The notes below the pieces were generated by a model, which was not told the DNA's origin, ran no database searches, and was given only the letters and a program-made list of their open reading frames with translations. From an uncultured Verrucomicrobiota bacterium (GTDB lineage Bacteria > Verrucomicrobiota > Verrucomicrobiia > Limisphaerales > UBA8199): a stretch of 64,000 bases of DNA. The stretch spans positions 3,462-67,461 of the forward strand of contig CAYNZC010000002.1 in assembly GCA_964401575.1 (NCBI GenBank), in the 5' to 3' direction. Both the position numbers and the translations under genes were made by a program. Position 1 is the stretch's first letter. Each line of letters begins with the position of its first letter. Below, piece by piece: positions 4,556-19,555 of the stretch.

Positions 4556-4612
4556 GGTTTCTTCTAATGGATGTTCAGGTGAAAATCAAGTGAAGGTTGT
4601 CGTGACGAGGAC

Positions 4613-4651
4613 AAAAAATGCAAAGCCGGGAACAGACTGTCGAGCCCGGCT
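4613..4651 (-). terminator. Rho-independent terminator of the large surface-protein gene
   Basis: Stem AGCCGGG (4624-4630) / CCCGGCT (4645-4651). On the minus strand it is followed by TTTTTT (complement of the A-run 4613-4618). It lies ~210 nt downstream of the stop at 4861. Confidence 0.5.
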
Positions 4652-4860
4652 CCTGTTTCCCAGGGTTTACAGGTGTCTCACCCTTGATTGGACGTTGCAG
4701 TGGTGTAAGCCGACAACATGTCTGCGTTCCGATCTGTCGGAGTTTCGCCCGCATTATGAAATATCCGGACCAAGGCTTCCGGGCCATGGCCCAGTGGTTC
4801 CTTTCGCAGCGCGAGGCCCGGCACCGGTGAGGACGGTTCCTGCTCCCGATGCCACGCCCA

Positions 4861-7800
4861 TCATGGCGTGGATTTCGCGCGGTAGAATTCCAGCACTGCA
4901 TTCGTCGTCGGTCCGACGATTTCCGCCGGTTGCGCCCCGAGGACGACATTCGTCCAAAGCGTCCAATGCACCAGGTTCGTGCTGGAGAGAATGTCGTAGG
5001 TCCCCGGCTCGCCGCTTAACACCAGCCGCAACTGTCCGCCGGGCAAGGGCTCTGCCACATCAAACTTCAGCGGCAGCAGAGGCGCCACGGCAAGGTTCGC
5101 CCCTGAACTCGTGACGGTGCCCGCCATGTTGGTGATCAGCACGGAGTATGTGCCGGCGTCGGATGCCTGCACACTGTTGCGCATGAAGGAGCTTGATGTT
5201 GCGGCAGGGATGGGAGTGCCGTTGAACCGCCACTGGTAGCCCAGGGTAGCCGTTCCCCCGGCTTGCACTGTAAAGGTGGCGCTCGCGCCCTCCTTCACTG
5301 ACTGGCCGGCCGGCTGCGATAGGATATACGGCGGCACATTAGTCACATACACTTCGAACTTTACGTTGTCTATCATGCCAAAGCTCATGTTCGTGTTGTC
5401 ACTGAGCGATGCGTAGCTGTCCCAGTAGCCGATGAAGAACTTGTTGCCGGGCAGCGAAGCCTCCGGAACGCTTGCGATCTTGTGTCCGTCAATGAACCAC
5501 TCCACCGTGCTGCCCTGCCGCGTAAGCATGATTTGCCTCCAGGCAAAACCAATCGTCCCGGCCTCCAGGCTGCCCGCCTGCCGCGAGTCGGACAGTTGCG
5601 CCGAGGGGGCGGTCTGGCCACCGGGGAACCGGGCCGTGTAATAGGCGCTCAGATTGTCGCGCGCATCCGACGCCGTGCCGGCCATGTACACACCTGATCC
5701 CGGGTAAAATGCCGTGGTCCCGTTGCATGCGTAGAAGTCGATCGCGCCCTGACCCTCGCCATCCACGGCGAACCATGCGCCATCCGCTGTCGATCCCGTC
5801 CCTATCCATTGCACGGGTGTTCCCGTGGTGCCCATGCCGACAGTTCCATGTTGGGTGGACCCGGTCCCGCCCGCCGGGAATTGGCCGTTGGCATTCATCC
5901 AGAGATAATAAGTGAGCTTGCAGTCCGCCGGAAAAACCCCGGAAGACGGGCTCATATTCAGCGCCGCCACCACGCCGTTTGCCATGTTCGCCTCGAACTT
6001 CGCCCCTCGCGTGCTTCCGCCTGTTGATCCGGGCGCAGATGGAATGCCATACGGCGAGTAGTCGTAGTTGAAGGTCACTCGCGTGTCCGTGGAGGATTTT
6101 CTCACCGTCCATCGCGAGGAAGAGTTGGTTTCAAAGAGATCCACAAAAGCCGTCTGCAGCACGGGTGCGACGGTGGCCTCCACCAGCGCCGCCAGGCTCG
6201 TGTCCGCGCCGAACGTGTTTGTCACCACCACATCATAATACCCGGAGTGGACCGGCTGGAAATTGGACTTCGTGTAGCTGGTCCTGGTCTCGCCAACAAT
6301 CGGAGTTCCGTTAAATCGCCACTGGTAATTGAGCGCCGGCGTGCCGCTGGCCGCCGCCGTGAGCACTACCGTGCCTCCTTGCAGCACACGAGTCGATGCC
6401 GGATCCGCCACGATTTGCGGCGGCTGGTTTGTGGGTATCCCGCTTAGCAGGAACGTCAGTGTGTCCGCCATGTAGGCGCTTCTCGTCGCACCTGCAGTCA
6501 TCGTCTCAAACGGAAAACCGAACAGGACCACTCGGCCTCCACCCGCCGATCCGTCATACTGGATTCCGGCATACCCGCTGGACACGCCGGAGTAACTCAC
6601 CGCGGCCACAGCTCCCGCACCCGCCGGTTGCATCACGTCCGGCATCTGCGCCCAGTAAATGCCCCGGCTGCCGTCGTCCACGATTGCATTGGCATTGCCC
6701 GCAAACACGCCGTTCGCATGCGCCGTCGCTGTGTAAGAAGCCGAATTGCTGCTCACGAATGTCGTGTGCAGATAATTCTGCAAAAAGTTCCGGTCCGCCG
6801 TGCTGGCCGCCGGCCCACCGAGATCCGTCACCAGATCCGCCCCGGAGACAAACATCGCCCCGCCCGCAAGCAAGTAGGTCGCCAGTCGGGACTGCTCGGT
6901 TGCGCTGATGGTCTCCTGGGCAATCGAGTCATTGCCGCACGCCCAAATCACGACAGCGTAATTAGCCAGGACCACCTGTCCGTTCGCTACCGCCTCGTTC
7001 TGGCAGGAATCAAAAGCCATACCGTGCGCGCTAATCGCCTTGCCGTGCTGCGCCACGTAATCAAACGAGTTGACCCGGCGCGGCCACACCCGCTCGATCG
7101 CCCCGGTGCTGTCCGGCGCCACCCAACCCTGCCGCGTGGTGTCCTGACGAAGGTTGCTCGTCCGGTCCAGGCGGTCGTATGCATTCACCACCAGCACCAC
7201 GGGCCCGTTGGTCGAGGATACCCTGCATCCCACCGTCTCCGATGGCATTGATTCGCCGCCGGCATTCGCCGCCGCAATGCGGAAGTAATGATCTGTGTTG
7301 GCAGGCAAATTGGTCACAGTGTAGGTCGTCACATTGCCCACGGACACCGGGTTTCCGAAACCATAACCGTCCGCGGACCGGTAAATGACGTAATTCGTCG
7401 GGCTTTGGCTTCCCCCGCTGCTCGTTGGGGCCGCCCACGTCAGGGTAATATTCCCTCCGCCGGAGGAGATCGCGCGGGGATTTACCGGAGGCTCAGGCAA
7501 AAACGCCAGGGGCGCCGGGCTGTTTGTGTCGTAGGTGTTCATGAACCGCACCAGTCCATGCAGCACAGACCTTGCGATCGCCGCGCGCCCCTTGGCATCG
7601 CGCATAATCTTTGCGTCATCCACACTGTCATGAAACGCCACCTCCACAATCGTTGCCGCCATCTCGTTGTTAAAGAGGGTTCCCGTAATCTCAGAGTAAG
7701 ACCCCGAGTAGGTGTGTGTCGTTCGCGTCGTCCACGCTACCTCCAGCGGGGGCGCCCCGAGCGCAGCCATGTCCTCATTTACTTCCTTGCCCGTCAACAA

Positions 7801-8952
7801 CGCCAACTGCGACTGGTAAGGCGTTGGGGTGCCGGTAATCAACCCTACTGCCCCGCGGCCGCCACCCGCGTTCGAGTGAAATCCAATGTGCGCCCGCTTG
7901 AACAAATCACCCGAAGCCTCGCGGTTCATCTCCGCCGTCATCTTAGGCGGCGCAGACCAACTATCGGACTCGTCATCCCCGGTCCCATCGTAAAGCGAGG
8001 AAGACTGCCCCTGGCCCAGGCTCGAACGAATCCAGTACCGGTTGCTCTCATCTTCCCGCGGGTAGCCCGAACCGCCGCCGCCCGTGTCCGTCGCCCCCAT
8101 CCCGTTCCCAAACCGGATTGCATCCGCAATGATCACACTCCCCGTCGCCGAACCACGCAGATTGCTGATCACCACCGAGCCCGACGCCGGGTTTGACCCG
8201 GCATTAAAATAATACTCGCCCAGGTAAACCCACCCTGCCCCCACCAGGTAATGCGGTATTCGCACCTGTGATTCCCCGCCAGTATGTTTGATCCGGTAAA
8301 GCTGGTCGCACCGGTCCGAACCGTGCAACGCCCATGTGTACACCGGATAATGACCCGCCACAGGTATGTTCGGGGTGTAGGTTGCCGTTGCGGACTCCGC
8401 ATCCGCCAGTGACGCGTACCGATACGGCACATCTCCCGACGACCCATAGAATTTAGTCGAACTGCTGTTCGCCCACGACCCCGCAAACACCACCCCGGAA
8501 CTGTCATTATCCAACACCACTTCGTTCGTCTGCTGACCCAGCGGGCGAAACGGCACCACGACAGCTCCCGCATTAAAGCAGTACATCCCAAAAAAATTCA
8601 TCTGGTCCACATTCCCGTAGTCCTCGTTCATGTCGTTCAGATTTCCCCGGAGCAAACGCCACGGCGGCGTAAAATCCGCGTCATACGTCCACCCATGACC
8701 CGCATTCATGTAAATCACTCTGCCGGACAACGCCCCCTGCGGCTGGCGCGTGGCCGACGCCATGGCGCCGAATGTGTAGCTCGGCCGACCCTCTGAAAGC
8801 GCCGGGCCGGGCGCCGGCGGAGGCGCCGGCTCGCACCAGTCCGGCGACTGCGGCACCGGCGGATCGTCCACAAAACGGTCCTCAGAAGCTGGAAGCACAG
8901 GGGTCAACGCCAGGGAAGCGACAACGAACAAACGAAACATCAGGTACCGCAT
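4861..8952 (-). CDS. Large secreted multidomain protein: split amidase_3-like domain + FN3 + two Ig-like (I-set type) modules + LamG/concanavalin-like region
   Basis: Signal peptide MRYLMFRLFVVASLALTPVLPA. MurNAc-LAA-like motifs NAGHGW, GFHSNAGGG and VEVAFHDSVDDA, separated by a ~150-aa insert. FN3-like segment (ITLTWAAP...YVIYRS...YFRIAAANAGG). Two Ig-like repeats each contain YQWRFNGTPI. Start taken at ATG 8952; a GTG at 8991 is also possible. Confidence 0.8.
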   Translation of the reverse strand: MRYLMFRLFVVASLALTPVLPASEDRFVDDPPVPQSPDWCEPAPPPAPGPALSEGRPSYTFGAMASATRQPQGALSGRVIYMNAGHGWTYDADFTPPWRLLRGNLNDMNEDYGNVDQMNFFGMYCFNAGAVVVPFRPLGQQTNEVVLDNDSSGVVFAGSWANSSSTKFYGSSGDVPYRYASLADAESATATYTPNIPVAGHYPVYTWALHGSDRCDQLYRIKHTGGESQVRIPHYLVGAGWVYLGEYYFNAGSNPASGSVVISNLRGSATGSVIIADAIRFGNGMGATDTGGGGSGYPREDESNRYWIRSSLGQGQSSSLYDGTGDDESDSWSAPPKMTAEMNREASGDLFKRAHIGFHSNAGGGRGAVGLITGTPTPYQSQLALLTGKEVNEDMAALGAPPLEVAWTTRTTHTYSGSYSEITGTLFNNEMAATIVEVAFHDSVDDAKIMRDAKGRAAIARSVLHGLVRFMNTYDTNSPAPLAFLPEPPVNPRAISSGGGNITLTWAAPTSSGGSQSPTNYVIYRSADGYGFGNPVSVGNVTTYTVTNLPANTDHYFRIAAANAGGESMPSETVGCRVSSTNGPVVLVVNAYDRLDRTSNLRQDTTRQGWVAPDSTGAIERVWPRRVNSFDYVAQHGKAISAHGMAFDSCQNEAVANGQVVLANYAVVIWACGNDSIAQETISATEQSRLATYLLAGGAMFVSGADLVTDLGGPAASTADRNFLQNYLHTTFVSSNSASYTATAHANGVFAGNANAIVDDGSRGIYWAQMPDVMQPAGAGAVAAVSYSGVSSGYAGIQYDGSAGGGRVVLFGFPFETMTAGATRSAYMADTLTFLLSGIPTNQPPQIVADPASTRVLQGGTVVLTAAASGTPALNYQWRFNGTPIVGETRTSYTKSNFQPVHSGYYDVVVTNTFGADTSLAALVEATVAPVLQTAFVDLFETNSSSRWTVRKSSTDTRVTFNYDYSPYGIPSAPGSTGGSTRGAKFEANMANGVVAALNMSPSSGVFPADCKLTYYLWMNANGQFPAGGTGSTQHGTVGMGTTGTPVQWIGTGSTADGAWFAVDGEGQGAIDFYACNGTTAFYPGSGVYMAGTASDARDNLSAYYTARFPGGQTAPSAQLSDSRQAGSLEAGTIGFAWRQIMLTRQGSTVEWFIDGHKIASVPEASLPGNKFFIGYWDSYASLSDNTNMSFGMIDNVKFEVYVTNVPPYILSQPAGQSVKEGASATFTVQAGGTATLGYQWRFNGTPIPAATSSSFMRNSVQASDAGTYSVLITNMAGTVTSSGANLAVAPLLPLKFDVAEPLPGGQLRLVLSGEPGTYDILSSTNLVHWTLWTNVVLGAQPAEIVGPTTNAVLEFYRAKSTP

Positions 8953-9118
8953 TGCCAAACAATAACATAATTTGACGTGACCAGCAATCACTGAGAAGCG
9001 CTAATTCGCCCACCGCCCCGTCACAAACAGCTCGCTCATGAGCCCAGATCCGACAGTGCCCTATTCTCCCAACGCCCCAGTCCTGGATGTCTTTCACCCT
9101 CCATTCCTGGCTGTCGGT

Positions 9119-9135
9119 CGGACAAAAAATGTCCG
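9119..9135. promoter_or_regulatory. Perfect inverted repeat CGGACA-N5-TGTCCG next to a TTGACA hexamer, upstream of the 9213 operon (candidate operator)
   Basis: CGGACAAAAAATGTCCG at 9119-9135, with TTGACA at 9140-9145. It lies in the 260-bp divergent region between the surface-protein gene and the seven-gene operon, 78 nt upstream of ATG 9213. No convincing -10 box was seen. Confidence 0.25.
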
Positions 9136-9212
9136 TTCTTTGACAAATCTGCCGTAGCTCTTTTTTCACATTCCTCTCACCCTTTCATCGGATTAGACTC
9201 TTCGAGTCGTTT

Positions 9213-9434
9213 ATGCGCATAGATCATTTCATCCGCGGTAGCCGACGCGACTTCTTCAAAGCCGCTTCGAGATATGCTTTTCTGGCGGGGTTGAGCGCCC
9301 TGGCGGCCACCGTCCTGCGCAAGCCCTGCCCGCAGCCGACCCGATGTCCGGGCCAGAATGTCTGCTCGAATTGCACATGGTTTCAATCATGCGCATTACC
9401 ACAGGCTGTCTCCGAACGCGCTTCGATCCATTGA
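9213..9434 (+). CDS. Small (73 aa) twin-arginine-signal protein with a Cys/Trp-rich ~40-aa mature region
   Basis: MRIDHFIRGSRRDFFKAASRYAFLAGLSALAATVL carries a near-consensus Tat motif (SRRDFFK) and an h-region. The mature part is RKPCPQPTRCPGQNVCSNCTWFQSCALPQ... with 5 Cys and 1 Trp. GC3 by hand count (~64%) is coding-like. The stop TGA (9432-9434) overlaps an in-frame TTG (9431) of the next gene. Confidence 0.55.
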   Translation: MRIDHFIRGSRRDFFKAASRYAFLAGLSALAATVLRKPCPQPTRCPGQNVCSNCTWFQSCALPQAVSERASIH

Positions 9435-10441
9435 CCAAGCCCCTCCAAATCAACAGACGCCGCTTTCTGGAAGTCGCCTCCGGGACACTGCTATCCGCGC
9501 CGTTTATCCTCCAGGGGGCGCAACCCGGGAAGCCAAACCGCCTGGCCTATGACATTTCACGATTCACGGTTACGGACCGGAAGCTGATCGCATACGAAGA
9601 GCAGCGACGGTTCGAAAAGGTGGCGGAGAGTCCGCGCCGTCTTTGGGTCGAGAAGTCGGGCGCCTTTCTCGTGGCTTGCGCCAAAGGGGTAGTCGGAGTG
9701 GGCGCATCCGGACAACCGGAACGCGAGTTTCACACTCCATCCCCCGCCGGTTGTGTGTGCCGCGACGCCTCAGGCAATACCTGGGTCGGCACGCGCAACG
9801 GCATTCATCGTTTCGACCCTTCCGCAACTCAATCCGGTTTCTGGCCAGCGCCAAATTCGCAATCGTGGTTCACAGCCCTCGATACAGATGGGGATGACGT
9901 GTTTGCGGCGGACTCCGGCAACCGCGTGGTGCTGCGCTACAATCTTTCCGGAAAAATCCTCGGACGCATCGGCACAAAGGACAACGCGCGGAACATCCCC
10001 GGCATTGTGCTGCCGAGCCCATACCTCGATGTGCGGTGCGGACCGGACGGCCTGCTAAGGGTGAACAACAGCGGACGCCACTGCGTCGAACTCTACACGC
10101 GGGACGGCGACCGCGAACTCTCCTGGGGCAGGCCTGGCGCGGGCATCGAAGGCTTTTGCGGCTGCTGCAATCCCGTAGCGCTCGACACCCTGCCGGATGG
10201 CTCCTTTGTGACATGTGAAAAGGGGCTGCCGCGCGTGAAGGTTTATTCTGCCAGAGGAGAGTTTCGGTCCGTGGTCGCCGGACCGGAATCGTTCCCGGAG
10301 AATCCACGGCACGGCGCTGCGACCACCGCCCGAGGCGGGCCCGTCAGCGGGTTGGATGCCGCAACAGGACCGGATGGGTTGATCCTGGTGCTGGACCTGG
10401 CCACTGCCAATGTACATGTGATGCAACCGAAGAAATCATGA
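9431..10441 (+). CDS. Tat-signal NHL-repeat six-bladed beta-propeller protein
   Basis: Tat motif INRRRFLEVASGTLLSAPFILQGA. NHL-like blades (VFAADSGNRVVLRYNLSGK; DGLLRVNNSGRHCVELYTRDG; DGSFVTCEKGLPRVKVYSARG; DGLILVLDLATANVHVM). Unusual FCGCCNP motif. The stop overlaps the next ATG (ATGA at 10438-10441). Start ambiguous: TTG 9431 gives an 8-aa n-region, while ATG 9389, 9377 or 9344 would overlap the small ORF. Confidence 0.8.
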   Translation: MTKPLQINRRRFLEVASGTLLSAPFILQGAQPGKPNRLAYDISRFTVTDRKLIAYEEQRRFEKVAESPRRLWVEKSGAFLVACAKGVVGVGASGQPEREFHTPSPAGCVCRDASGNTWVGTRNGIHRFDPSATQSGFWPAPNSQSWFTALDTDGDDVFAADSGNRVVLRYNLSGKILGRIGTKDNARNIPGIVLPSPYLDVRCGPDGLLRVNNSGRHCVELYTRDGDRELSWGRPGAGIEGFCGCCNPVALDTLPDGSFVTCEKGLPRVKVYSARGEFRSVVAGPESFPENPRHGAATTARGGPVSGLDAATGPDGLILVLDLATANVHVMQPKKS

Positions 10442-10995
10442 ACGACAAGCCCCGGGAATCCAGGCGAGAGTTTTTGACCAACGGCGCGCGGTTTACAGCC
10501 GCCGCCGGGCTTGCCGGCCTGGCAGGCCTTCTGGCCGCCCGCGGCACCGCCAAAGGCACGGTGTGGCAGATCGACCCCGAGAAGTGCGTGCGCTGCGGGA
10601 ACTGCGCCACACACTGTGTGCTCGAGCAATCCGCCGTAAAATGCGTCCACGCCTACGCCATGTGCGGATACTGCCAGCTTTGCACAGGTTTCTTCGAGCC
10701 CGAGCCCAACGACCTCAACACAGGAGCCGAAAACTGCCTCTGCCCGACCTCCGCCATCAAACGCACGTTCATCGAGGATCCCTATTACGAATACACCATC
10801 GACGAAAAGCTCTGCATCGGCTGCGCCAAATGTGTCGAGGGTTGCGCCCGCTTTGGCAACGGCTCGCTCTTCCTCCAGGTGCGGCACGATCTCTGCGTGA
10901 ACTGCAACGAGTGCGCCATTTCGAAGGTCTGCGCCGGCGACGCCTTCGTCCGTCTGCCTGCGGATCGTCCCTATCTGCTGAAAACGGGTCACTGA
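10438..10995 (+). CDS. Tat-signal periplasmic ferredoxin with four Cys clusters (NapG/MauM/NosG-like)
   Basis: Tat motif ESRREFLTNGARFTAAAGLAGLAG. Cluster motifs CVRCGNCATHC, CGYCQLC...CLCP, CIGCAKCVEGC and CVNCNECAISKVC. Confidence 0.85.
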   Translation: MNDKPRESRREFLTNGARFTAAAGLAGLAGLLAARGTAKGTVWQIDPEKCVRCGNCATHCVLEQSAVKCVHAYAMCGYCQLCTGFFEPEPNDLNTGAENCLCPTSAIKRTFIEDPYYEYTIDEKLCIGCAKCVEGCARFGNGSLFLQVRHDLCVNCNECAISKVCAGDAFVRLPADRPYLLKTGH

Positions 10996-12410
10996 TGCGT
11001 TCCTCTTTTTCATACCGGCTGCTGCTGGCCACGTTCCTGGGCTGGATGTTGATTTTCAGCCTTGATGCCCGGGCCGCCCAACGCTTTCCCCCGCCAGACT
11101 TTGAATCGGGCCACTCGCTGCCGGAAACGACCGTGCCCGCCGCGCGCGCCGTGGCGCTGGAATACCTGGACATCGCAGTCCTGGCCGTAGCGCTCAGCGT
11201 GGCTTCCTGGATCATCTTCAGGAAGCGGTCCCGCAAGGCCATGATCGGTCTTTCCGTTTTCTCTCTGCTCTATTTCGGCTTCTGGAAACAGGGCTGCGTC
11301 TGCGCCATCGGCTCCGTGCAGAACGTCGCCCTGGCGCTTGCTGGAAACGGTTACTCCCTGCCCGTATCTGTGCTGGCATTCTTTGCTCTGCCCCTGGGTG
11401 TGGCGCTGTTTTTTGGACGGGCCTTTTGCGCCGGCGTTTGCCCGCACGGTGCGCTGCAGGACCTGGTTTTAAGGAAGCCCGTGAAGGTGCCCGCATGGCT
11501 CGAGCACGGGCTGGGCGTGCTGCCGTTCGTTTATCTCGGCGCGGCGGTTCTCTTTGCCGCCACCGGCAGCGCCTTCCTCATCTGCCAATACGATCCCTTT
11601 GTGCCGGTGTTCCGCATGAGCGGGAGGTGGTTGATGGTGGCCGCAGGCGTGGCCCTGCTGGTGCTGGGCGTGTTCGTCGGCAGACCCTATTGCCGGTTCC
11701 TCTGTCCGTTGGGCGCGTTGCTCAAGATCAGCGCCACCGTCTCGCGCCTGCACGTTCGCGTCACCCCCGCCACCTGTACGCAATGCCGGCTCTGCGAGCA
11801 CTCATGCCCGTTCGGCGCCATGCGAAATCCCGAAACGCCGGACCCGCGCGCTCTCCAGAAAGATCGGCGCACTCTGACGGCACTGCTTGCCGCCGCGCCA
11901 GTCATTATTCTCGCCTCGGCCTGGGTCGGATGGACCTTCAGCGATGTTGCTGCCCGGATGCATCCCACGGTTTCTCTGTCAGAACGTGTGGTTCGGGAGA
12001 AGGGGACGCCGACCCCCACCGGGGTGCTTTCGCCGGACGACCTCGCGTTGGAACGGGCGCGGCAGGCGCCGGACAAGTTGCTCAACGAAGCCGTGCAAAT
12101 CCGCGACAAGTTCAGGATCGGCTCCTCCATGTTCGGCGCATGGGTGGGCCTGGTCATCGCCGTCAAACTCATCAGCCTGTGCCGGCGCCGGATCCGAAAG
12201 GATTTCGAACCGGACCAGGGTTCCTGCGTGGCTTGTGCCCGTTGCTTCGAGACCTGCCCCGATGAATGGATCCGCCGCGGCCTCACCCCACCCTCGTGGC
12301 AGGCTCCAGAATCAGAACAGGCGGGAGGACGTTCATCCCAGGAAACCCAAAACTCTTCGGAACGGGGACATCCCGTCGCCGAACCGCCCAAAAGAAGGGA
12401 GTCCTTATGA
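10995..12410 (+). CDS. Integral-membrane polyferredoxin, NapH/MauN/NosH-like
   Basis: ATG at 10995 shares one base with the upstream TGA (TGATG). Several TM helices. Two NapH-type CX3CP motifs (GRAFCAGVCPHGALQD; GRPYCRFLCPLGALLK). Two 4Fe-4S motifs (CTQCRLCEHSCP; CVACARCFETCP). The 144 codons upstream in the ORF track are an Arg-rich out-of-frame overlap of the ferredoxin gene and are discounted. Confidence 0.85.
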   Translation: MRSSFSYRLLLATFLGWMLIFSLDARAAQRFPPPDFESGHSLPETTVPAARAVALEYLDIAVLAVALSVASWIIFRKRSRKAMIGLSVFSLLYFGFWKQGCVCAIGSVQNVALALAGNGYSLPVSVLAFFALPLGVALFFGRAFCAGVCPHGALQDLVLRKPVKVPAWLEHGLGVLPFVYLGAAVLFAATGSAFLICQYDPFVPVFRMSGRWLMVAAGVALLVLGVFVGRPYCRFLCPLGALLKISATVSRLHVRVTPATCTQCRLCEHSCPFGAMRNPETPDPRALQKDRRTLTALLAAAPVIILASAWVGWTFSDVAARMHPTVSLSERVVREKGTPTPTGVLSPDDLALERARQAPDKLLNEAVQIRDKFRIGSSMFGAWVGLVIAVKLISLCRRRIRKDFEPDQGSCVACARCFETCPDEWIRRGLTPPSWQAPESEQAGGRSSQETQNSSERGHPVAEPPKRRESL

Positions 12411-14221
12411 CCTCCGTCTGGCGCTCCCTTCGCAATGCCGCAGCCCTCTTTACCCTCGCAGTCGGGCTCGTCATGGTTTTCGACTACGTCAGCGCCCGCA
12501 GCGGGGATCCGCTAAATTCTCCACAACTCCAGGCCCTGAAGGATGATCTCCGCGCAACCCCGGGAAGTGACGATCTCAAGGCGAAGATCCGCGAGCTCGA
12601 TCTCGACCTGCGCCAGCGCTATTTTCGATACATCGCCCGGATGAACTCCGGCGTCTGGCTTCTGATCATCGGCGCCACCGCAGCCCTGGTCGCCGCCGCG
12701 CGCGCCAGGTTCCCTCACGCATACGAGAGTATTTCCGAAAACGGGCGCGTCTCGCTCGCGCCTCAATCCGAAACCCGAGGGGCCCCGACCCAGCGGGCGT
12801 ATAATTATCTTCGTACGAGAGCGACGCCAGACGCACCCGCATCTTCGAAGAACAAAGCGTTCAGTGCAGTCGCTGCAACGGGACTCGCAACGCTCCTGTT
12901 CCTGGGTTGGCTGGCAGTCACCTCCGCTCCATCCGCCCTGCCCTCGCGCATGGCCCGCGCGGAAACCCCATCCGGCCCGGCCACGGAAGATGGCCCGGAT
13001 TGCGCTTCCCCCGCAGAATTGAATCGCAATTGGTCCAGATTCCGTGGGCCCGGCGGCAACGGCGTCGCCCTCGCGGGCAAAGCCCCCATCTCATGGAACG
13101 CTGAAACCGCCTCAGGCATCGCGTGGAAAGTCCCCTCTCCCGTCCCGGGTTTTAATTCCCCAATCGTTTTCGACAGCCGCATTTTCATCGCAGGCGGGGA
13201 TGCCTCGAAACTCGAAATCGTTGCCCTCAACCTGAACGACGGGCAGGTCGTATGGCGTCAGCCCATCCAGGCTCCTTCGGGCACCCAAACCGCCGAAGTC
13301 CCCGAGTCCACAGGCTATGCCCCGTCCACCATGGCCACAGACGGACGCCGCGTCTATGCCATCTTCGCCAACGGCCTGCTTGGCGCCATCAATGTGGACG
13401 GCCGGCCCGCCTGGACGAAATCCTTTGGCGCACTCAGCAATCCCTACGGTCACGCCATTTCCCTCGTTACCTGGCAGGATCGCGTCATCGTCCAGCTCGA
13501 CCAGGGCGAAAGCGGCGAAGGCAAGTCCGTTCTTTACATGCTCGACGGCCGGACCGGAAGACCCGTCTGGCAGAAACCACGCACCCTCGGCGCTTCATGG
13601 GCCTCACCCATCGTCTTCGAAGCAGCGGGCCATCACCAGATCCTCACACTCTCCATCCCCTTTGCCATCGCTTACTCGGCTGCCAGCGGAGAGGAACTCT
13701 GGCGCGCGGATTGTCTTAACGGCGAAGTCACTCCATCCCCCATCTTCGCCGGCAACCGCCTGATTGTTGCCAGCCCCTCCGATCGCATTATGTCCATCCG
13801 GCCGGACGGACGGGGCGACGTCACAAAAACACACATCCAGTGGAGCTTCGACGAGGATATTCCGGACGTCACAAGCCCGGTCGGCAACGGCGAGTTAATC
13901 TTCTTTGTCAGCACCCATGGCGGCCTGACTTGCATTGACGCAAAGGATGGCAGCAAGGTCTGGACTCAGGACCTGGAGTTCGAATGCCACGCCTCCCCGG
14001 CCATTGCAGGCGGCCACCTCTACCTGTTCGGCCAGGAGGGCTCTGTCGTCATCGCCGAGGTCGCCCGCCAATACATGGAAGTCTTTCGCACAAAAATGCC
14101 CGACAGCTTCCACGCCAGCCCGGCATTTGTTCAGGACAGTATCGTAGTGCGCGGCATGTCCAGTATGTGGCGGCTGGGGTCCGTCACTACGCCGGAAGCC
14201 GGGGGAGGCCCCAAACCATGA
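12407..14221 (+). CDS. Membrane-anchored PQQ-like (BamB/PQQ_2-type) beta-propeller repeat protein
   Basis: ATGA overlap with the upstream stop. Three N-terminal hydrophobic segments (AALFTLAVGLVMVF; VWLLIIGATAALVAAA; AVAATGLATLLFLGWLAVT). Recurrent PQQ-like blade signatures follow: NLNDGQVVWRQP, LDGRTGRPVWQKP, SAASGEELWRAD and DAKDGSKVWTQD. Confidence 0.8.
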   Translation: MTSVWRSLRNAAALFTLAVGLVMVFDYVSARSGDPLNSPQLQALKDDLRATPGSDDLKAKIRELDLDLRQRYFRYIARMNSGVWLLIIGATAALVAAARARFPHAYESISENGRVSLAPQSETRGAPTQRAYNYLRTRATPDAPASSKNKAFSAVAATGLATLLFLGWLAVTSAPSALPSRMARAETPSGPATEDGPDCASPAELNRNWSRFRGPGGNGVALAGKAPISWNAETASGIAWKVPSPVPGFNSPIVFDSRIFIAGGDASKLEIVALNLNDGQVVWRQPIQAPSGTQTAEVPESTGYAPSTMATDGRRVYAIFANGLLGAINVDGRPAWTKSFGALSNPYGHAISLVTWQDRVIVQLDQGESGEGKSVLYMLDGRTGRPVWQKPRTLGASWASPIVFEAAGHHQILTLSIPFAIAYSAASGEELWRADCLNGEVTPSPIFAGNRLIVASPSDRIMSIRPDGRGDVTKTHIQWSFDEDIPDVTSPVGNGELIFFVSTHGGLTCIDAKDGSKVWTQDLEFECHASPAIAGGHLYLFGQEGSVVIAEVARQYMEVFRTKMPDSFHASPAFVQDSIVVRGMSSMWRLGSVTTPEAGGGPKP

Positions 14222-16650
14222 GCAGCCTTCTCGAAGCGCCGGCGGCCATCGTTCGACCCGAGCCCGACCTCGCCTACGTGGACGAGGCCGTAGAGCGCTA
14301 CGGACGCCAACCTGACGCCGTCCTTCCAATCCTCCAGGCCCTGCAGGACCATTATGGCTACTTGCCACATGCGGCGCTCGAAAAGATCTGCTCCGTCACG
14401 AGAATTACCCCCGCCGGCGTCTCCGGAGTCGCTTCGTTCTATGACATGTTCCGGCTCCAGCCTGCCGGCAAACACATCATCAGGGTCTGCCGCGGAACCG
14501 CTTGCCACGTTAACGGCGCCGAACGCGTCGAAGACGCTCTGAAGCGCGAGTTGGGCATCGTCCCCGGCCAGGATACCGATTCCCAGGGTCAATACACGGT
14601 TGAGCAGGTCGCATGTCTTGGTTGCTGCACGCTCGCCCCGGTCGTTCGAATCGAAAATGCCACGTTCGGCCATGCCACTCCCGAACGCGCGCATGCTATC
14701 CTCCGCGAGTTCTCCGAGCTGAAACTTAACGGTGGCGGCGCGCGTTCCACCGAGGAACTGCTCCAACCCGCAGCCGCCAAAGGCGAAATCAGGATCGGGC
14801 TTGGCTCCTGCTGTATCGCCAAGGGCAGCGACCAATTATTTCACGCCTTACAGGACGAAGTCGCCCGCACCAACGCGCCCGTCAACGTCAAACGCGTCGG
14901 CTGTGTGGGCATGTGCCATCGCACGCCGCTCGTGGAAATCAACGCTCCCGGCGCCGACCGATCCCTCTACGCCGGTCTCGCCGCGCCCGATGTTCGCGCC
15001 CTGGTCCGACGCCATTTCCGTCCGCGCGGCATCCCGAACAGGGCCAAACAAATTGCGGATGGAATGATCGATGCCCTGCTTGGCGTTCATAACCACGAAG
15101 TCATCTCGAGCGCCGCCCTGCGCCCGCAGGAGCCGTCCGTATGCGACTTCCTTGGCGGACAGGTTCACATTGCCACCGAGCATTTCGGCGAGTCCGACCC
15201 GCTCGACCTCGACGAATACGTGCGTCACGGCGGCTTCACCGCCCTGGCCCGCTGCCTCGGACCCGAATCGAAGCCGGAACCTCTCGCCTCCCCGCTGCAA
15301 GCCATCCCTCCCTCCGCCATTCCAGACCTCCTGGACCGGGCAGGCCTGCGCGGACGCGGCGGCGCAGGATTCCCCACCGGCGCAAAGTGGCGCATGGCCC
15401 GGGAGCAGACCTCAAACTCCAAATACATCATCTGCAATGGCGACGAAGGCGATCCCGGCGCTTTCATGGACCGCATGCTTCTGGAATCCTTTCCTTTCAG
15501 GATCATTGAGGGCATGGCAATCGCGGCCGTCGCCACAGGCGCCCATGAAGGCTTTCTTTACATCCGCCACGAATATCCGCTGGCCCTCAAACGCGTTCGC
15601 GCCGCCATTAAACTTTGCGAGCGGCGGGGCTGGATCGGGCAGCGCCTGCTCGGCGCCGACTACCCTTTTCGCCTCACCATCAAGCAAGGCGGCGGGGCTT
15701 TTGTTTGTGGTGAGGAAACCGCTCTCATCGAATCCATCGAGGGGCGCCGCGGCATGCCCCGCTTGCGCCCTCCGTTCCCTGCGGTCAGCGGCTTATGGGG
15801 CAAGCCGACCGTTATCAACAATGTTGAAACGCTGGCCATGGTCCCTTGGATCATCTGCAACGGCCCCGAGGCTTTTGCCGCACTGGGCACAAAGAATGGG
15901 CGCGGCACAAAGGTCTTTGCCCTCGCCGGCAACGTCCGCCGCGGTGGCCTCATCGAAGTCCCCATGGGCATGACTATTCGACAGATTGTCGAGGGAATCG
16001 GCGGCGGCGTCCGCCCCGGCCGCACGTTCAAAGCCGTTCAGATCGGCGGGCCCTCCGGCGGCTGCATTCCCGCAAGCCTCGCGGACACTCCCATCGATTT
16101 CGAATCTCTCCGCGCCGTTGGCGCAATTATGGGCTCGGGCGGTTTGGTCGTGCTCGACGACACTGCCTGCATGGTGGACATCGCCCGCTATTTCCTTCAG
16201 TTCACCCAGCAGCAATCCTGCGGCAAGTGCACTTTCTGCCGCATCGGCACCCGTCGCATGCTCGAAATCCTCAACCGCATCTGCGCGGGCAAGGGCCATG
16301 CGAAAGATCTCGCCATGCTCGAAACGCTGGCCCAGCAGGTCGCAGCCGGCAGCCTCTGTGGCCTTGGCAAAACCGCCCCGAACCCTGTGCTCACAACGTT
16401 GCGCTATTTCCGCGACGAATATCAGGCGCACCTGCAAGGTCGTTGCCCCGCCGCCGCCTGCACCGCACTGATCAAGTACCGCGTTCTCGACAATTGCACA
16501 GGCTGCACCATTTGTGCGCAGCATTGCCCCACCGATGCCATCCCGATCACCCCCTACCAGCGGCATTGGATTGACATGGACAAATGCATCCGCTGCGATT
16601 CCTGCCGCCAGGTTTGTCCGCATCAGGCGGTGGAAAAGGCGTCCCCATGA
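14218..16650 (+). CDS. NuoE-NuoF fusion flavoprotein (NADH-binding, FMN, multiple Fe-S; HydB/HoxF/FdhB-like)
   Basis: ATGA overlap with the upstream stop. NuoE-type 2Fe-2S (CRGTAC...CLGCC). A second thioredoxin-like 2Fe-2S (GSCCIAKG...GCVGMCH). NuoF motifs GRGGAGFPTGAKW, ICNGDEGDPGAF and SCGKCTFCR...LCGLG. C-terminal 2x4Fe-4S (CTGCTICAQHCP; CIRCDSCRQVCP). Confidence 0.9.
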   Translation: MSSLLEAPAAIVRPEPDLAYVDEAVERYGRQPDAVLPILQALQDHYGYLPHAALEKICSVTRITPAGVSGVASFYDMFRLQPAGKHIIRVCRGTACHVNGAERVEDALKRELGIVPGQDTDSQGQYTVEQVACLGCCTLAPVVRIENATFGHATPERAHAILREFSELKLNGGGARSTEELLQPAAAKGEIRIGLGSCCIAKGSDQLFHALQDEVARTNAPVNVKRVGCVGMCHRTPLVEINAPGADRSLYAGLAAPDVRALVRRHFRPRGIPNRAKQIADGMIDALLGVHNHEVISSAALRPQEPSVCDFLGGQVHIATEHFGESDPLDLDEYVRHGGFTALARCLGPESKPEPLASPLQAIPPSAIPDLLDRAGLRGRGGAGFPTGAKWRMAREQTSNSKYIICNGDEGDPGAFMDRMLLESFPFRIIEGMAIAAVATGAHEGFLYIRHEYPLALKRVRAAIKLCERRGWIGQRLLGADYPFRLTIKQGGGAFVCGEETALIESIEGRRGMPRLRPPFPAVSGLWGKPTVINNVETLAMVPWIICNGPEAFAALGTKNGRGTKVFALAGNVRRGGLIEVPMGMTIRQIVEGIGGGVRPGRTFKAVQIGGPSGGCIPASLADTPIDFESLRAVGAIMGSGGLVVLDDTACMVDIARYFLQFTQQQSCGKCTFCRIGTRRMLEILNRICAGKGHAKDLAMLETLAQQVAAGSLCGLGKTAPNPVLTTLRYFRDEYQAHLQGRCPAAACTALIKYRVLDNCTGCTICAQHCPTDAIPITPYQRHWIDMDKCIRCDSCRQVCPHQAVEKASP

Positions 16651-18242
16651 GCACCGCCACCGTCACTATTGATGGACGCAGGATCGAGGTCACGGCAGAG
16701 CAGACCATCCTTGATGTCGCCCGCAAGGCCGGGTTGGATATTCCCACGCTCTGTTACCTCGAAAAATGCGGCCCTCTCAACACCTGCCAGGTGTGTCTCG
16801 TAAAACTGAACGGCAAACTTGTTCCCTCCTGCGGCACAATCGCGGAGCCGGGAATGACGATAGAAAGCGAAACCGAGGAGGTTTATGAAGCACGCCGCAC
16901 CGCACTTGAATTGCTCTTTAGCGATCACGTGGGCGATTGCCTCGCCCCCTGCCAGCGCCTTTGCCCCCTGGGACTAAACATTCCCGGGTTGCTTCGCCAG
17001 GTCCAAAGCCAGGACACCCCGGGGGCAATCCAAACGGTCCGTGCCACTCTTCCGCTCGCGGGTGTTCTTGGCGTCCTTTGCCATCACCCCTGCGAGCAAG
17101 GTTGCCGCCGCGGCCATTGGGATGGACCTGCCACAATCCGCGACATCGAACGCCATGTCGCCGAACTCGAAGATGATCGGATGTTCGCCGGCATCCAGAA
17201 AGAATGCGAACCGGGTCGTCCCTCCCTCGCAATCATCGGCGCCGGCCCATCCGGCCTTGCTGCTGCCTTCTACCTCGCCAGGGCCGGCACGGCAGTCACG
17301 GTCTTCGATCGCAACAAGGAACCTGGTGGCACACTCCGCATGGAACAACTTCCAGCCGGCATTCTTGCCCGCGAAATTTCCATCCTCCAGCGGCTTGGCG
17401 TTAAAATTGAGACCGGCATCGAACTCGGCTCCGGGGTATCTCTCACAGATCTGTTGGCAAAATTCGGCGCCGTCCTCGTCGCCATCGGCGACCCCGTCGG
17501 TCAAACCGCACTCGGTCTCCCACTGTCGTCCGGCCGGATCCAGGTGGATCCGCATACTCACCTCACCCCCTTGAAAAATGTCTTTGCCACCGGCGCAGCC
17601 GTCCGCTCCACACGCCAACTCGTCCGTGTGATGGCCGAGGCCAAAGCTGCCGCAGATTGCCTCCGGGATCATCTCAAGGGCATCGCGCCCAAAGCCCTGC
17701 AGCGGCCCTTTTCCAGCGTCATGGGTCGCCTTTCACCCCTCGAGCTCAAGCACTTCATTTCAGTAAACAACGCAGCCGCAGCCACAACCCCATGCAATCG
17801 CTGCGCCTCCACAGGGAAATCCGATCCGGCGGGACACGGGCATCCCACCCCGGCACTGCAAACTCTCTTCACGCCCCTCCAGGCGACGACGGAAGCCTCA
17901 CGCTGCCTCCATTGCGATTGCGCCTCCTCGGGCAACTGTATCCTCCAGCACTACGCCCAGCTTTACAACGCCGATGCCAACCGGTTCAGGTCAGAGCGCC
18001 GTCCCTTCGAGTGCCAGGTCATGCCAGGGGGCATCATCTTTGAACCCGGCAAATGCATCCTGTGCGGCATCTGCGTCAAAATCACCGAGCTGGCTGCCGA
18101 ACCCCTGGGACTCACCTTCATCGGCCGCGGTTTTGATGTTAAACTCGCCGCGCCCTTGAATCAGACGATCGAAGACGGTCTGAGAAAATGCGCAAAGGAG
18201 TGCGTTGATAACTGTCCGACCGGCGCATTATCCATGAGATAG
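16647..18242 (+). CDS. Fe-S flavoprotein: NuoG-type 2Fe-2S domain + GltD/NfnB-like FAD domain + NuoG-like 4Fe-4S domain
   Basis: ATGA overlap with the upstream stop. N-terminus VTIDGRRIEV...CYLEKCGPLNTCQVCLV. GltD-like Fe-S segment CLAPCQRLCPLG...CHHPCEQGC. One dinucleotide fold, AIIGAGPSGLAAAFYLARAG...VFATGAAV; I found no second GxGxxG. C-terminus CLHCDC...C, CILCGICV, CAKECVDNCPTGAL. Confidence 0.85.
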   Translation: MSTATVTIDGRRIEVTAEQTILDVARKAGLDIPTLCYLEKCGPLNTCQVCLVKLNGKLVPSCGTIAEPGMTIESETEEVYEARRTALELLFSDHVGDCLAPCQRLCPLGLNIPGLLRQVQSQDTPGAIQTVRATLPLAGVLGVLCHHPCEQGCRRGHWDGPATIRDIERHVAELEDDRMFAGIQKECEPGRPSLAIIGAGPSGLAAAFYLARAGTAVTVFDRNKEPGGTLRMEQLPAGILAREISILQRLGVKIETGIELGSGVSLTDLLAKFGAVLVAIGDPVGQTALGLPLSSGRIQVDPHTHLTPLKNVFATGAAVRSTRQLVRVMAEAKAAADCLRDHLKGIAPKALQRPFSSVMGRLSPLELKHFISVNNAAAATTPCNRCASTGKSDPAGHGHPTPALQTLFTPLQATTEASRCLHCDCASSGNCILQHYAQLYNADANRFRSERRPFECQVMPGGIIFEPGKCILCGICVKITELAAEPLGLTFIGRGFDVKLAAPLNQTIEDGLRKCAKECVDNCPTGALSMR

Positions 18243-19489: not shown

Positions 19490-19555
19490 CCTGCGCCAGC
19501 CAATATTCAGAAATGCCACGTTACTTCTCAAAGTCTTTGCTTAAGTCTATGGTGA

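Follow-up and report, generated by a model that had tools for sequence, protein, structure and literature searches.

A conserved small gene for a Tat-signal, four-cysteine protein in a redox gene cluster of Verrucomicrobiota and Planctomycetota

Introduction

In Escherichia coli, the RseC protein contains a C-x5-C-x2-C-x5-C domain that assembles, upon reconstitution, an O2-sensitive [4Fe-4S]-type cluster with a 420-nm spectrum, and the last three of the four Cys are the conserved ones (PMC11729352). RseC is a small, membrane-anchored protein: its Cys loop lies in an N-terminal cytoplasmic domain that is followed by two TM helices, and its partner is a membrane electron-transfer complex with polyferredoxin and NuoF/RnfC-like subunits. 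The shorter string C-x2-C-x5-C also occurs within other [4Fe-4S] ligand sets, namely those of cluster N5 of complex I (H-x3-C-x2-C-x5-C) and of SPASM domains.

Several other described systems resemble the one reported here. HiPIPs are small, soluble, Tat-exported periplasmic electron carriers with a single cluster and four Cys, which are spread over ~35 residues. In Rieske proteins, the twin-arginine signal may remain uncleaved and serve as the anchor of a small periplasmic Fe-S domain. MauA (MADH light subunit, cofactor TTQ) and QhpC (QHNDH gamma subunit, cofactor CTQ) are small, Cys-rich exported peptides whose genes adjoin beta-propeller and NapG/NapH-like (MauM/MauN) genes. Lastly, the TIGR02811 family ("formate dehydrogenase region TAT target") consists of Tat-signal proteins of at most 70 aa that are found beside periplasmic redox enzymes and have an aromatic/His C-terminal motif.

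Here, we analyze a 73-aa open reading frame (ORF) in a stretch of 64,000 nucleotides (hereafter the window) from an uncultured Verrucomicrobiota bacterium, together with its gene neighborhood and its family.

A small gene hidden by its neighbor

The frame translates to exactly the 73-aa sequence quoted in the original prediction, and no start codon lies between the upstream stop and ATG 9213. Its third-position GC, counted by hand as about 64%, computes to 0.644. Two details of that prediction had to be corrected: the first Cys gap is x5 rather than x6 (C39-x5-C45-x5-C51-x2-C54-x5-C60), and 38 aa rather than 40 remain after the signal. The string C-x5-C-x2-C-x5-C appears once in a six-frame translation of the 64-kb window, against 0.14 occurrences expected.

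A word-indexed search with this one sequence as query gave no homologue, but an exhaustive phmmer search succeeded: among 1.84 billion representative proteins (clusters at 50% identity), it retrieved 189 homologous clusters at E<=1e-3. The original prediction had proposed looking for the frame in syntenic loci and measuring its dN/dS. Of 81 syntenic loci, about 77 have a homologous small ORF within the same cluster of genes, and the dN/dS of close pairs is 0.15-0.5, which indicates purifying selection. Together with the invariant residues described below, these results sustain the claim that the frame is coding, and on such comparative grounds the 73 codons are a real gene that annotation has missed.

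How it was missed can be read from the public record of this genome, in which the NHL gene yields a 365-aa product from ATG 9344. The small ORF escaped public annotation because the next gene was called from this overlapping start; the prediction had described it as unannotated-looking and, in fact, no protein in a collection of 15 billion has exactly these 73 aa. As was also noted there, a TTG at 9431, in frame with the NHL gene, shares bases with the TGA of the small ORF (9432-9434), and from this TTG the NHL protein would begin MTKPLQINRRRFLE. An identical 4-nt overlap is found in three other loci (L006, L029 and L033). TTG 9431 is probably the start of the NHL gene, translationally coupled to the small ORF, which agrees with the proposal that the small ORF is the first cistron of the operon. 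In three near-identical contigs (L083-L085), the DNA is identical over the region and offers no substitutions to compare between the overlapping frames.

Table 1. Features of the small gene and of the gene cluster that it heads (positions in the window).
Feature	Position	Strand	Evidence
Small ORF, Tat signal and Cys4 module, 73 aa	9213..9434	+	Translation; 189-cluster family; synteny
Twin-arginine motif S10-R-R-D-F-F-K16	9240..9260	+	A1 conservation; TIGR01409 and PF10518 matches in homologues
Long helix, residues 11-36 (signal h-region or uncleaved anchor)	9243..9320	+	AF2 pLDDT 83-97
Cys4 module C45-x5-C51-x2-C54-x5-C60-A-L62-P63-Q-A65, proposed Fe-S site	9345..9407	+	Invariant Cys; RseC spacing
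TTGA overlap: small-ORF stop and probable NHL TTG start	9431..9434	+	Sequence; same 4-nt overlap in three loci
NHL beta-propeller, six-bladed, own Tat signal INRRRFLE	9431..10441	+	PDB profile matches to NHL/PknD/TRIM propellers
NapG-like periplasmic polyferredoxin, Tat signal SRREFL	10438..10995	+	Fer4 family matches
NapH/NosR-like membrane polyferredoxin	10995..12410	+	PF12801 Fer4_5 1.8e-17; weak TIGR02163 napH and NosR
PQQ_2/BamB-like beta-propeller, N-terminal hydrophobic segments	12407..14221	+	PF13360 1.5e-26
NuoE-NuoF fusion, C-terminal 2x[4Fe-4S] domain, cytoplasmic NAD(P)H module	14218..16650	+	TIGR01959 2e-134
NuoG N-terminal [2Fe-2S] domain and GltD-like NAD(P)-binding flavoprotein	16647..18242	+	Family-model matches

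The gene cluster

The cluster comprises seven genes (Table 1). Apart from two propellers, it encodes Fe-S/flavin electron-transfer proteins only; one of the propellers, the NHL protein, bears an invariant E-G-F-C-G-C-C-N-P motif (nt 10148-10174). The NapG/NapH-like proteins to which the original prediction drew a link are encoded in it. From the 384 relatives found, 80 genome loci were fetched, and all 80 keep the gene order NHL-NapG-NapH-PQQ-NuoEF. In Verrucomicrobiota the small gene lies upstream of NHL, whereas in Planctomycetota it stands between NHL and NapG; in one locus (L081) it overlaps the NapG start. It may be dispensable because some clusters, such as L072, appear to be without it. 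Across the 80 loci, neither the cluster nor the region upstream of it has a recurrent maturase of the radical SAM, MauG-like or flavoprotein kind, and scans of the window for Rfam families and tRNAs were empty. We found no description of an NHL/NapG/NapH/NuoF-type cluster in the literature on Verrucomicrobia and Planctomycetes. Judged from its sequence, it is a redox gene cluster widespread in these two groups and their relatives.

A four-cysteine family

Family members are 70-90 aa long and share a signature: twin arginines, a single hydrophobic helix and the string C-x5-C-x2-C-x5-C-x-L-P-x-A. In an alignment of 69 sequences (A1), R11, R20, C45, C51, C54 and C60 are invariant, and R12, F14, L62, P63 and A65 reach 90% conservation or more. 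The same Cys pattern is present in 147 of the best 150 phmmer matches, the four conserved Cys all fall inside a 16-residue span, and the distance from the RR pair to the first of them (Cys1) is tightly fixed at 32-38 residues. The window protein displays the whole signature (RR-x-F, Arg at +9, 32-38 residues to Cys1, Cys4-L-P-x-A) in the canonical cluster. Where variation occurs, in L019, L055 and the fusions described below, it affects only Cys1 or the first spacing, and C-x2-C-x5-C is kept. Two residues that stand out in the window protein are not family traits: its first Cys, C39, is not conserved, and the position of its only Trp, W56, is occupied by A (30%), V (23%) or L (13%) in the family, the core of which has no Trp at 2% or above in any position.

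The family is uncurated: it has no Pfam or NCBIfam model, and its homologues are all named "hypothetical". In fact, Pfam and NCBIfam scans of the 69 members returned signal-peptide models only, at E<=1. The only two matches of a PDB profile search, to a zinc-binding RNA polymerase stretch and to a conotoxin, were non-significant, and Foldseek detected no structural neighbor in the PDB for the AF2 model, in which the Cys region has a moderate pLDDT of 55-77. Neither the small protein nor its 69 homologues match Fer4; the protein is without C-x2-C-x2-C-x3-C ferredoxin motifs and is an accessory module. A haem c reading was set aside, there being no CxxCH in the sequence.

Among the options that the original prediction saw in Tat export of a protein of this size was a bound cofactor, and all of this evidence agrees with it. 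By analogy with RseC, we infer that the four-Cys module carries an Fe-S cluster, likely [4Fe-4S]; Zn or Fe binding, or pairing into two disulfides, would suit four Cys equally well.

Predicted export and anchoring, and gene fusions

The motif S-R-R-D-F-F-K matches the S/T-R-R-x-F-L-K consensus and, given the conservation of R11, R12 and F14, the earlier description of a near-textbook Tat signal is supported. Across the 69 members, the Tat-signal models matched 16 (TIGR01409), 9 (PF10518) and 21 (TIGR02811, best E 3.5e-4) sequences; the window protein itself matched none, even at E<=1. The form RR-x-F-[FL]-x4-R is common to the signals of the small protein, of the NapG-like protein and of E. 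coli NapG. The AF2 model has a single helix ahead of the Cys module and no further TM segment. This helix includes the invariant R20 and the h-region Y21-L35 (mean Kyte-Doolittle hydropathy of residues 21-35, 1.87), and ends with the basic R36 K37, where the Planctomycetota homologues have a KRRRL c-region. The family has no conserved AxA or small-x-small site between the h-region and Cys1, and in the fusions only R-K-R separates the two. These features and the fixed RR-to-Cys1 distance fit an uncleaved anchor, although the signal may instead be cleaved. A lipoprotein reading was discarded for want of a lipobox before Cys1. The small protein is thus predicted to be Tat-exported and, probably, membrane-anchored.

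Gene fusions point to a partner. In a Victivallales MAG (L065), a single ORF at 4860-5519 of that locus encodes the RR signal, the h-region, the Cys module (with KLPEAL) and a NapG-like body; there is no second signal, so that the signal of the small protein replaces the Tat signal that the NapG-like protein otherwise has. The same in-frame N-terminal fusion is found in at least 16 distinct metagenome contigs (within L087-L104; 52-64% identity), all in an NHL-[fusion]-NapH context. By this evidence, the Cys module belongs to the compartment and to the complex of a Tat-exported polyferredoxin. Moreover, in Planctomycetota the NHL propeller is without a Tat signal of its own and has a Sec-type anchor instead, and the small protein keeps its RR-x-F there, as it does in every lineage. 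Because many independent contigs fuse the small protein to the NapG-like ferredoxin, its direct partner is probably this ferredoxin rather than a propeller. The original suggestion of a small subunit of one of the propellers thus survives in part: a small periplasmic subunit fits the evidence, with the ferredoxin rather than a propeller as its indicated partner.

Comparison with described systems

The Cys spacing of the window protein is identical to that of RseC (C45, C51, C54 and C60 against C20, C26, C29 and C35-G), with a small residue following in both, and the first Cys is variable or dispensable in both. Like RseC, the small protein would be an anchored partner of a membrane electron-transfer complex with polyferredoxin and NuoF-like subunits. 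Unlike RseC, it has one RR-signal helix before the motif, its module is predicted to be periplasmic, and no rnf/rsx genes occur at its cluster. Aligned with hhalign, the two families are in register over the 22-residue Cys motif only (E ~0.02, probability 2-3%); an RseC profile made from enterobacterial homologues only, at >=73% identity, added nothing to this profile-profile test. The RseC model PF04246 matched none of nine family members and one of 69 at E 0.7, against 1.5e-32 for E. coli RseC. Homology with RseC is therefore unproven by the profile tests, and we keep the resemblance as a motif-level analogy.

With NapG/MauM-type proteins, the small protein shares the type of Tat signal (RR-x-F-L-x4-R) and the Fe-S context with a NapH-like membrane partner; its gene adjoins the NapG-like gene and is fused to it in Victivallales-type loci. 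The module is nevertheless an addition that E. coli NapG lacks. The general plan of HiPIPs is also the one predicted here, but the Cys spacing differs, the module is half the size of a HiPIP and probably anchored, and the HiPIP Pfam model did not match the family at E<=1. The Rieske proteins offer a parallel for the uncleaved anchor, and two family members weakly match PF10399 (UCR_Fe-S_N); the small protein has neither the Rieske fold nor its Cys/His ligand pattern. TIGR02811 proteins are alike in size, signal and setting, but the matches rest on the signal peptide, and that family is without the Cys4 module just as ours is without its aromatic/His C-terminal motif.

The MauA/QhpC analogy, on which the original prediction had built its idea of a Trp-derived quinone, is close in genetic setting and fails in detail. 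There is no conserved Trp column that could provide a TTQ- or CTQ-type cofactor, neither C39 nor W56 is conserved in the family, the cluster has no MauG dihaem peroxidase, QhpD radical SAM or QhpG flavoprotein with which such a cofactor could be matured, and the fusion partner of the small protein is a ferredoxin instead of a propeller.

Discussion

On balance, we favor the view that the small protein is a Tat-exported, probably anchored Fe-S module, holds a single cluster and acts together with the NapG-like ferredoxin. The small ORF would be translated as the first cistron, and the TTGA overlap, read directly from the sequence, would couple the NHL gene to it. In the cytoplasm, C45, C51, C54 and C60 would receive an Fe-S cluster, most likely [4Fe-4S], and the folded holo-domain would be exported through Tat by means of its S-R-R-x-F-F-K signal, as the sequence and the fusions suggest. 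The signal helix would probably stay uncleaved, as in Rieske proteins, so that the 35 residues of the cluster module would be held against the membrane on its periplasmic side. There the module would act as an extra cluster of the NapG-like polyferredoxin, with which gene fusion shows it to be associated. Electrons may then pass, in one direction or the other, between the cytoplasmic NuoEF-/GltD-like NAD(P)H module and NapH-like membrane ferredoxin on one side and the periplasmic NHL and PQQ-like propellers on the other.

What the Cys hold is the point on which alternatives carry most weight. The module could be metal-free, with two disulfides (a mini-knot) or a redox-active CxxC dithiol, and the small protein would then serve the periplasmic complex as a structural or thiol-redox subunit: thiol:disulfide oxidoreductases, too, are marked by an invariant C-x2-C, the only PDB matches of the family profile, both non-significant, are the zinc-binding RNA polymerase stretch and the conotoxin, and the invariant CxCC of the NHL partner is a possible thiol target. 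We find this unlikely, since periplasmic disulfide peptides normally take Sec and DsbA, while the strictness of the Tat motif across phyla implies cytoplasmic folding or cofactor loading; moreover, the module is fused to a polyferredoxin in an operon that is Fe-S based throughout, and the same spacing assembles an Fe-S cluster in RseC. A mononuclear site in a small anchored subunit, be it rubredoxin/desulforedoxin-like Fe(Cys)4 or structural Zn(Cys)4, would agree with four invariant Cys across 16 residues and with the weak match of one member to the rubredoxin-like zinc ribbon PF12172 (E 0.79). The spacing is unlike the paired CxxC...CxxC knuckle of rubredoxins and zinc ribbons, and the variants that lose or shift Cys1 while keeping C-x2-C-x5-C better fit an RseC-like cubane with three Cys plus one, which makes a mononuclear site distinctly improbable to us. 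The idea that the protein supplies a peptide-derived cofactor (Trp/Cys quinone or thioether crosslink), as its precursor or as the small subunit acting with a propeller, draws on a resemblance in architecture: one cluster combines a beta-propeller with MauM/MauN-like genes and a small, Cys-rich peptide bearing a Tat signal. It is scarcely credible now and largely refuted by non-conservation: W56 is unique to the lineage of the window, the module conserves neither Trp nor Tyr, nor does the family conserve C39, and the missing maturases, the missing haem-binding motif and the ferredoxin fusion all speak against it. An Fe-S cluster hence remains our preferred reading of the module.

Its placement in the periplasm and its very existence can also be disputed. 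If the RR pair were not a Tat signal and the helix were oriented N-out/C-in, the Cys module would be cytoplasmic and would dock on the Fe-S domains of the NapH-like, NuoEF-like and GltD-like proteins, much as the identical motif of RseC is cytoplasmic and touches RsxB and RsxD. The very basic post-helix stretch of Planctomycetota members (KRRRLLREGK) would favor a cytoplasmic C-terminus under the positive-inside rule, and the window sequence fails the Tat HMMs. Yet basic c-regions are a known Sec-avoidance trait of Tat signals, R-R-x-F is consensus-like and invariant or nearly so, and in the fusions this signal is the sole export signal of a NapG-type ferredoxin, a protein that Tat exports to the periplasm; the reversed topology therefore seems very unlikely to us. 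As for the suspicion that the frame is a chance ORF in GC-rich DNA and that the NHL gene truly starts at ATG 9344, gene callers did choose that ATG here and in three near-identical contigs, and the window is rich in ORFs of similar size. However, the frame is kept in at least five phyla with its invariant residues and under purifying selection, elsewhere 2-390 nt separate the small ORF from the NHL gene or their order is reversed, the 29-aa N-terminal extension created by ATG 9344 has no counterpart in homologues, and NHL homologues carry a Tat motif near their start. These comparative data refute the chance-ORF reading, to which we give next to no credence. The preferred reading is thus that of a genuine small gene whose product would face the periplasm.

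The locus is an example of a conserved small gene lost because the downstream gene was over-extended across it, and the correction of the NHL start (here to TTG 9431) also concerns the near-identical relatives of this genome. It defines a new family with a sharp signature and a testable biochemical hypothesis, in which the Cys motif is tied to the NapG-type ferredoxin by fusion and to Fe-S binding by the RseC precedent. Tentatively, and with more doubt than confidence, we envision a larger picture: no smaller natural Fe-S electron-transfer protein would be known than this family's ~35-residue module on an uncleaved Tat anchor, and the family would be a dedicated subunit of an unrecognised periplasmic redox machine, in which NAD(P)H electrons would flow through a non-flavinylated NapH-like conduit to two propellers, one of them with its E-G-F-C-G-C-C-N-P site being a new type of periplasmic reductase. 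If true, this machine would be widespread in Verrucomicrobiota, Planctomycetota, Lentisphaerota, Poribacteria and some Bacteroidales. The core gene order is constant across several phyla. With the small protein as a tag on the complex, one could purify the latter and look for its substrate. The small family may connect two poorly understood matters, the mechanism of RseC and membrane-surface electron transfer by NapH/NapG-type modules.

A conserved small gene heads a redox cluster

Translation from ATG 9213, the first start codon past the preceding stop, gives exactly the protein of the original prediction, MRIDHFIRGSRRDFFKAASRYAFLAGLSALAATVLRKPCPQPTRCPGQNVCSNCTWFQSCALPQAVSERASIH. The small ORF had also been described as unannotated-looking, coding-like in third-position GC and first in its operon, and all of this was borne out: a collection of 15 billion proteins has no entry with this exact 73-aa sequence, GC3 is 0.644 and the ORF heads a run of seven genes. 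Two details needed correction: the first cysteine gap is x5, not x6 (C39, C45, C51, C54, C60), and the stretch after the signal has 38 residues, not 40. Start and stop codons overlap by 1-4 nt throughout the run, implying tight translational coupling of all seven genes. Between the small ORF and the divergent genes upstream of it, we found no full match to a sigma-70 promoter.

Features of the gene cluster, its surroundings and two homologous loci
Feature	Coordinates	Start/stop overlap	Description
Divergent upstream genes	window 251-8991 (-)		1376-aa surface protein with Golvesin_C, fn3 and Ig domains; ResB-like and CcsA-like cytochrome c biogenesis proteins
Divergent intergenic region	window 9119-9146 (+)		terminator-like hairpin with T-run (9119-9135), then directly TTGACA
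Small ORF	window 9213-9434 (+)		twin-arginine signal, four-Cys module
NHL gene, public record	window 9344-10441 (+)		365-aa product from ATG 9344, overlapping the small ORF
NHL propeller	window 9431-10441 (+)	9431 TTGA	NHL-type, six-bladed, Tat signal; PDB profile matches PknD and TRIM NHL domains
NHL motif	window 10148-10174 (+)		E-G-F-C-G-C-C-N-P, NHL residues 240-248
NapG-like protein	window 10438-10995 (+)	10438 ATGA	polyferredoxin, Tat signal
NapH-like protein	window 10995-12410 (+)	10995 TGATG	NapH/NosR-like membrane polyferredoxin
PQQ_2 protein	window 12407-14221 (+)	12407 ATGA	PQQ_2/BamB-like propeller
PQQ_2 N-terminal region	window 12407-13100 (+)		long, about three hydrophobic segments ahead of propeller
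NuoEF	window 14218-16650 (+)	14218 ATGA	NuoE-NuoF fusion
Flavoprotein	window 16647-18242 (+)	16647 ATGA	NuoG-N-terminus/GltD-like
Downstream genes	window 18647-22666 (+)		ECF-type sigma factor; Ser/Thr kinase with RDD domain
Fusion	L065:4860-5519		single ORF, small protein and NapG-like body
Inserted genes	L081 12085-12468, 14258-14620		two 23S_rRNA_IVP (PF05635) four-helix-bundle genes between cluster genes

The public record starts the NHL gene inside the small ORF, as do the gene calls in three near-identical contigs, where the DNA is identical across the region and so leaves no substitutions to compare frame by frame. We regard the ATG 9344 extension as an annotation artefact, because NHL homologues carry their export signal near their start and lie 2-390 nt from the small ORF or on its opposite side. 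The conserved Tat motif and the homologues' starts favour TTG 9431 as the probable start of a 336-aa protein opening with MTKPLQINRRRFLE; as originally claimed, this codon is in frame and is overlapped by the stop of the small ORF (TGA 9432-9434).

A word-indexed homologue search with the small protein gave no matches; phmmer against 1.84 billion representative proteins returned 189 clusters at E<=1e-3, nearly all 67-120 aa long, and 147 of the 150 best share the four-Cys pattern. Both comparisons proposed with the original prediction agree: dN/dS between close pairs of homologues is 0.15-0.5, and a small ORF is present in about 77 of 81 syntenic loci. Together with the conserved residues, these results refute the reading that the small ORF is not a gene; it is a conserved coding gene and a fixed member of the cluster. 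In the window, C-x5-C-x2-C-x5-C occurs once in six frames over 64 kb, at this ORF (0.14 expected).

A family built around four cysteines

In an alignment of 69 homologues, R11, R20, C45, C51, C54 and C60 are invariant and R12, F14, L62, P63 and A65 at least 90% conserved; C39 shows no conservation. Among 236 sequences the core consensus is C-[IVL]-N-x-G-[IVL]-C-x-G-C-x-[AVL]-[FLY]-x-x-C-x-L-P-x-A-[LV]-S-A-[KR], at a fixed distance of 32-38 residues from the RR motif to Cys1. Pfam and NCBIfam scans of the 69 members hit signal-peptide models only (TAT_signal, TIGR01409, the signal part of TIGR02811), besides one weak RseC match, and a PDB sequence search with the family gave no matches. The AF2 model has a confident helix (residues 11-36) and a short C-terminal helix, with moderate confidence in the Cys region (pLDDT 55-77); Foldseek found no structural neighbour for it. 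The family is uncurated, undescribed and unusually small, with a predicted cluster module of about 35 residues.

The signal has the form RR-x-F-[FL]-x4-R, common to the small protein, the NapG-like protein and E. coli NapG. In Verrucomicrobiota-type loci the NHL propeller has a twin-arginine signal (49/80 genome loci, L001-L080), and in Planctomycetota-type loci a Sec-type hydrophobic anchor that lacks RR. Even there, RR persists in the small protein and in the NapG-like one, so Tat dependence would be the small protein's own property.

Fusion to the NapG-like ferredoxin

In L065, a Victivallales MAG, no separate small ORF is apparent and the NapG-like gene is longer. Its single ORF opens with MKETGKKQDRRDFLRSIGRSIAFGALAVLCGSLALRRK, the RR signal and helix, continues with the Cys module C-x7-C-x2-C-x5-C-KLPEALEIK and ends in the NapG-like body (VWQLDATKCVQCGKC...) without a second signal. 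Searching metagenomes with this protein turned up at least 16 distinct contigs (L089-L104; 52-64% identity) that carry the same fusion, always in NHL-[fusion]-NapH-PQQ context. So many diverged contigs with one context argue for a real, old architecture, not an assembly error. The small protein is therefore physically fusible to the NapG-like ferredoxin, and the family exists in split and fused forms. In fusions the first Cys spacing is 7-12 residues and C-x2-C-x5-C is constant; the split variants L019 and L055 lack Cys1 only.

The fusion puts the Cys module into one complex with a Tat-exported polyferredoxin, and hence into that protein's compartment, marks the NapG-like ferredoxin as its closest functional partner and suggests that its RR signal works as an export signal for such a polyferredoxin. 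The signal form shared with the NapG-like protein, and the RR motif kept by the small protein where the NHL propeller has lost its own, add support.

A candidate iron-sulfur subunit

C-x2-C-x5-C also lies within the ligand sets of complex I cluster N5 and SPASM-domain auxiliary clusters. The four-Cys motif C-x5-C-x2-C-x5-C recurs in E. coli RseC (C20, C26, C29, C35, then Gly; sequence checked). Its last three Cys are conserved and functionally required (Lee et al. 2024, PMC11729352); its isolated N-terminal domain, reconstituted anaerobically, shows a 420-nm absorption typical of [4Fe-4S] that decays in air, and RseC touches RsxB and RsxD of the Rnf-type SoxR-reducing complex (PMC11729352). 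We treat RseC as a functional precedent, not a relative, because hhalign puts the motifs in register without statistical support (22 columns, E ~0.02, probability 2-3%), PF04246 does not match the family, and helix and motif come in the opposite order. An RseC-like cytoplasmic orientation is unlikely, given the invariant RR-x-F and the fusion to a NapG-type protein.

Alternatively, the cysteines could form a metal-free disulfide or thiol-redox module, which we consider improbable, or a mononuclear Fe or Zn site, to which we give somewhat less credence still. The Trp/Cys-derived quinone originally proposed is not supported: most members have A, V or L in place of W56, the only Trp, maturases are absent and the fusions join the small protein to a ferredoxin. 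We favour a [4Fe-4S]-type cluster that would be loaded onto C45, C51, C54 and C60 in the cytoplasm before Tat export. The signal helix would probably be kept as a membrane anchor, as suggested by the lack of a conserved AxA, the fixed RR-Cys1 spacing and the mere R-K-R between helix and Cys1 in fusions. The small protein would give the NapG-like ferredoxin one more cluster, on its membrane-proximal side. It would thereby lie on the path that joins the two periplasmic propellers to the NapH-like protein, which the NAD(P)H module (NuoEF-like and GltD-like) would feed. Méheust et al. 2021 (PMC8238504) describe NapH-like proteins as modular conduits that carry electrons through the membrane for extracytosolic oxidoreductases, mostly flavinylated; the window's NapH-like protein lacks an FMN-binding domain. 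The type is already known: a small Tat-exported Fe-S subunit serving a periplasmic redox system.

Elsewhere in the cluster, the NHL motif is invariant across 80 homologues and T-x-E-K-G-x-x-R-V-K-x-Y, farther along, is likewise conserved; together they look like a putative metal or redox site. The PQQ_2 protein's N-terminal region suggests a polytopic membrane anchor. The redox cluster itself contains no cytochrome genes. The sigma factor and kinase adjoining its downstream end are possible regulators.

Distribution

Scanning 185,579 species genomes yielded 384 relatives of the NHL protein, and NHL-NapG-NapH-PQQ-NuoEF order is preserved in 80/80 fetched loci, from Verrucomicrobiota, Planctomycetota (Pirellulales, Phycisphaerae, Sedimentisphaerales), Poribacteria, Latescibacteria, Victivallales and Bacteroidales. 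In the 50 Verrucomicrobiota-type loci the small ORF lies immediately upstream of NHL; elsewhere, Planctomycetota-type loci included, its place is between NHL and NapG. In the metagenomic locus L081, two unrelated genes, for a glyoxalase and an acetyltransferase, split it from NHL, yet it overlaps the NapG start. Planctomycetota-type loci (L047-L080) have an extra PQQ_2 propeller upstream of the cluster (35 loci in all) and often an FtsX-like ABC permease of about 1100 aa (17 loci) with its ATPase (13 loci); the window has none of these at the equivalent position. Database homologues of the small protein are all called 'hypothetical protein', without any Pfam domain. The small-protein family marks a widely distributed gene cluster.
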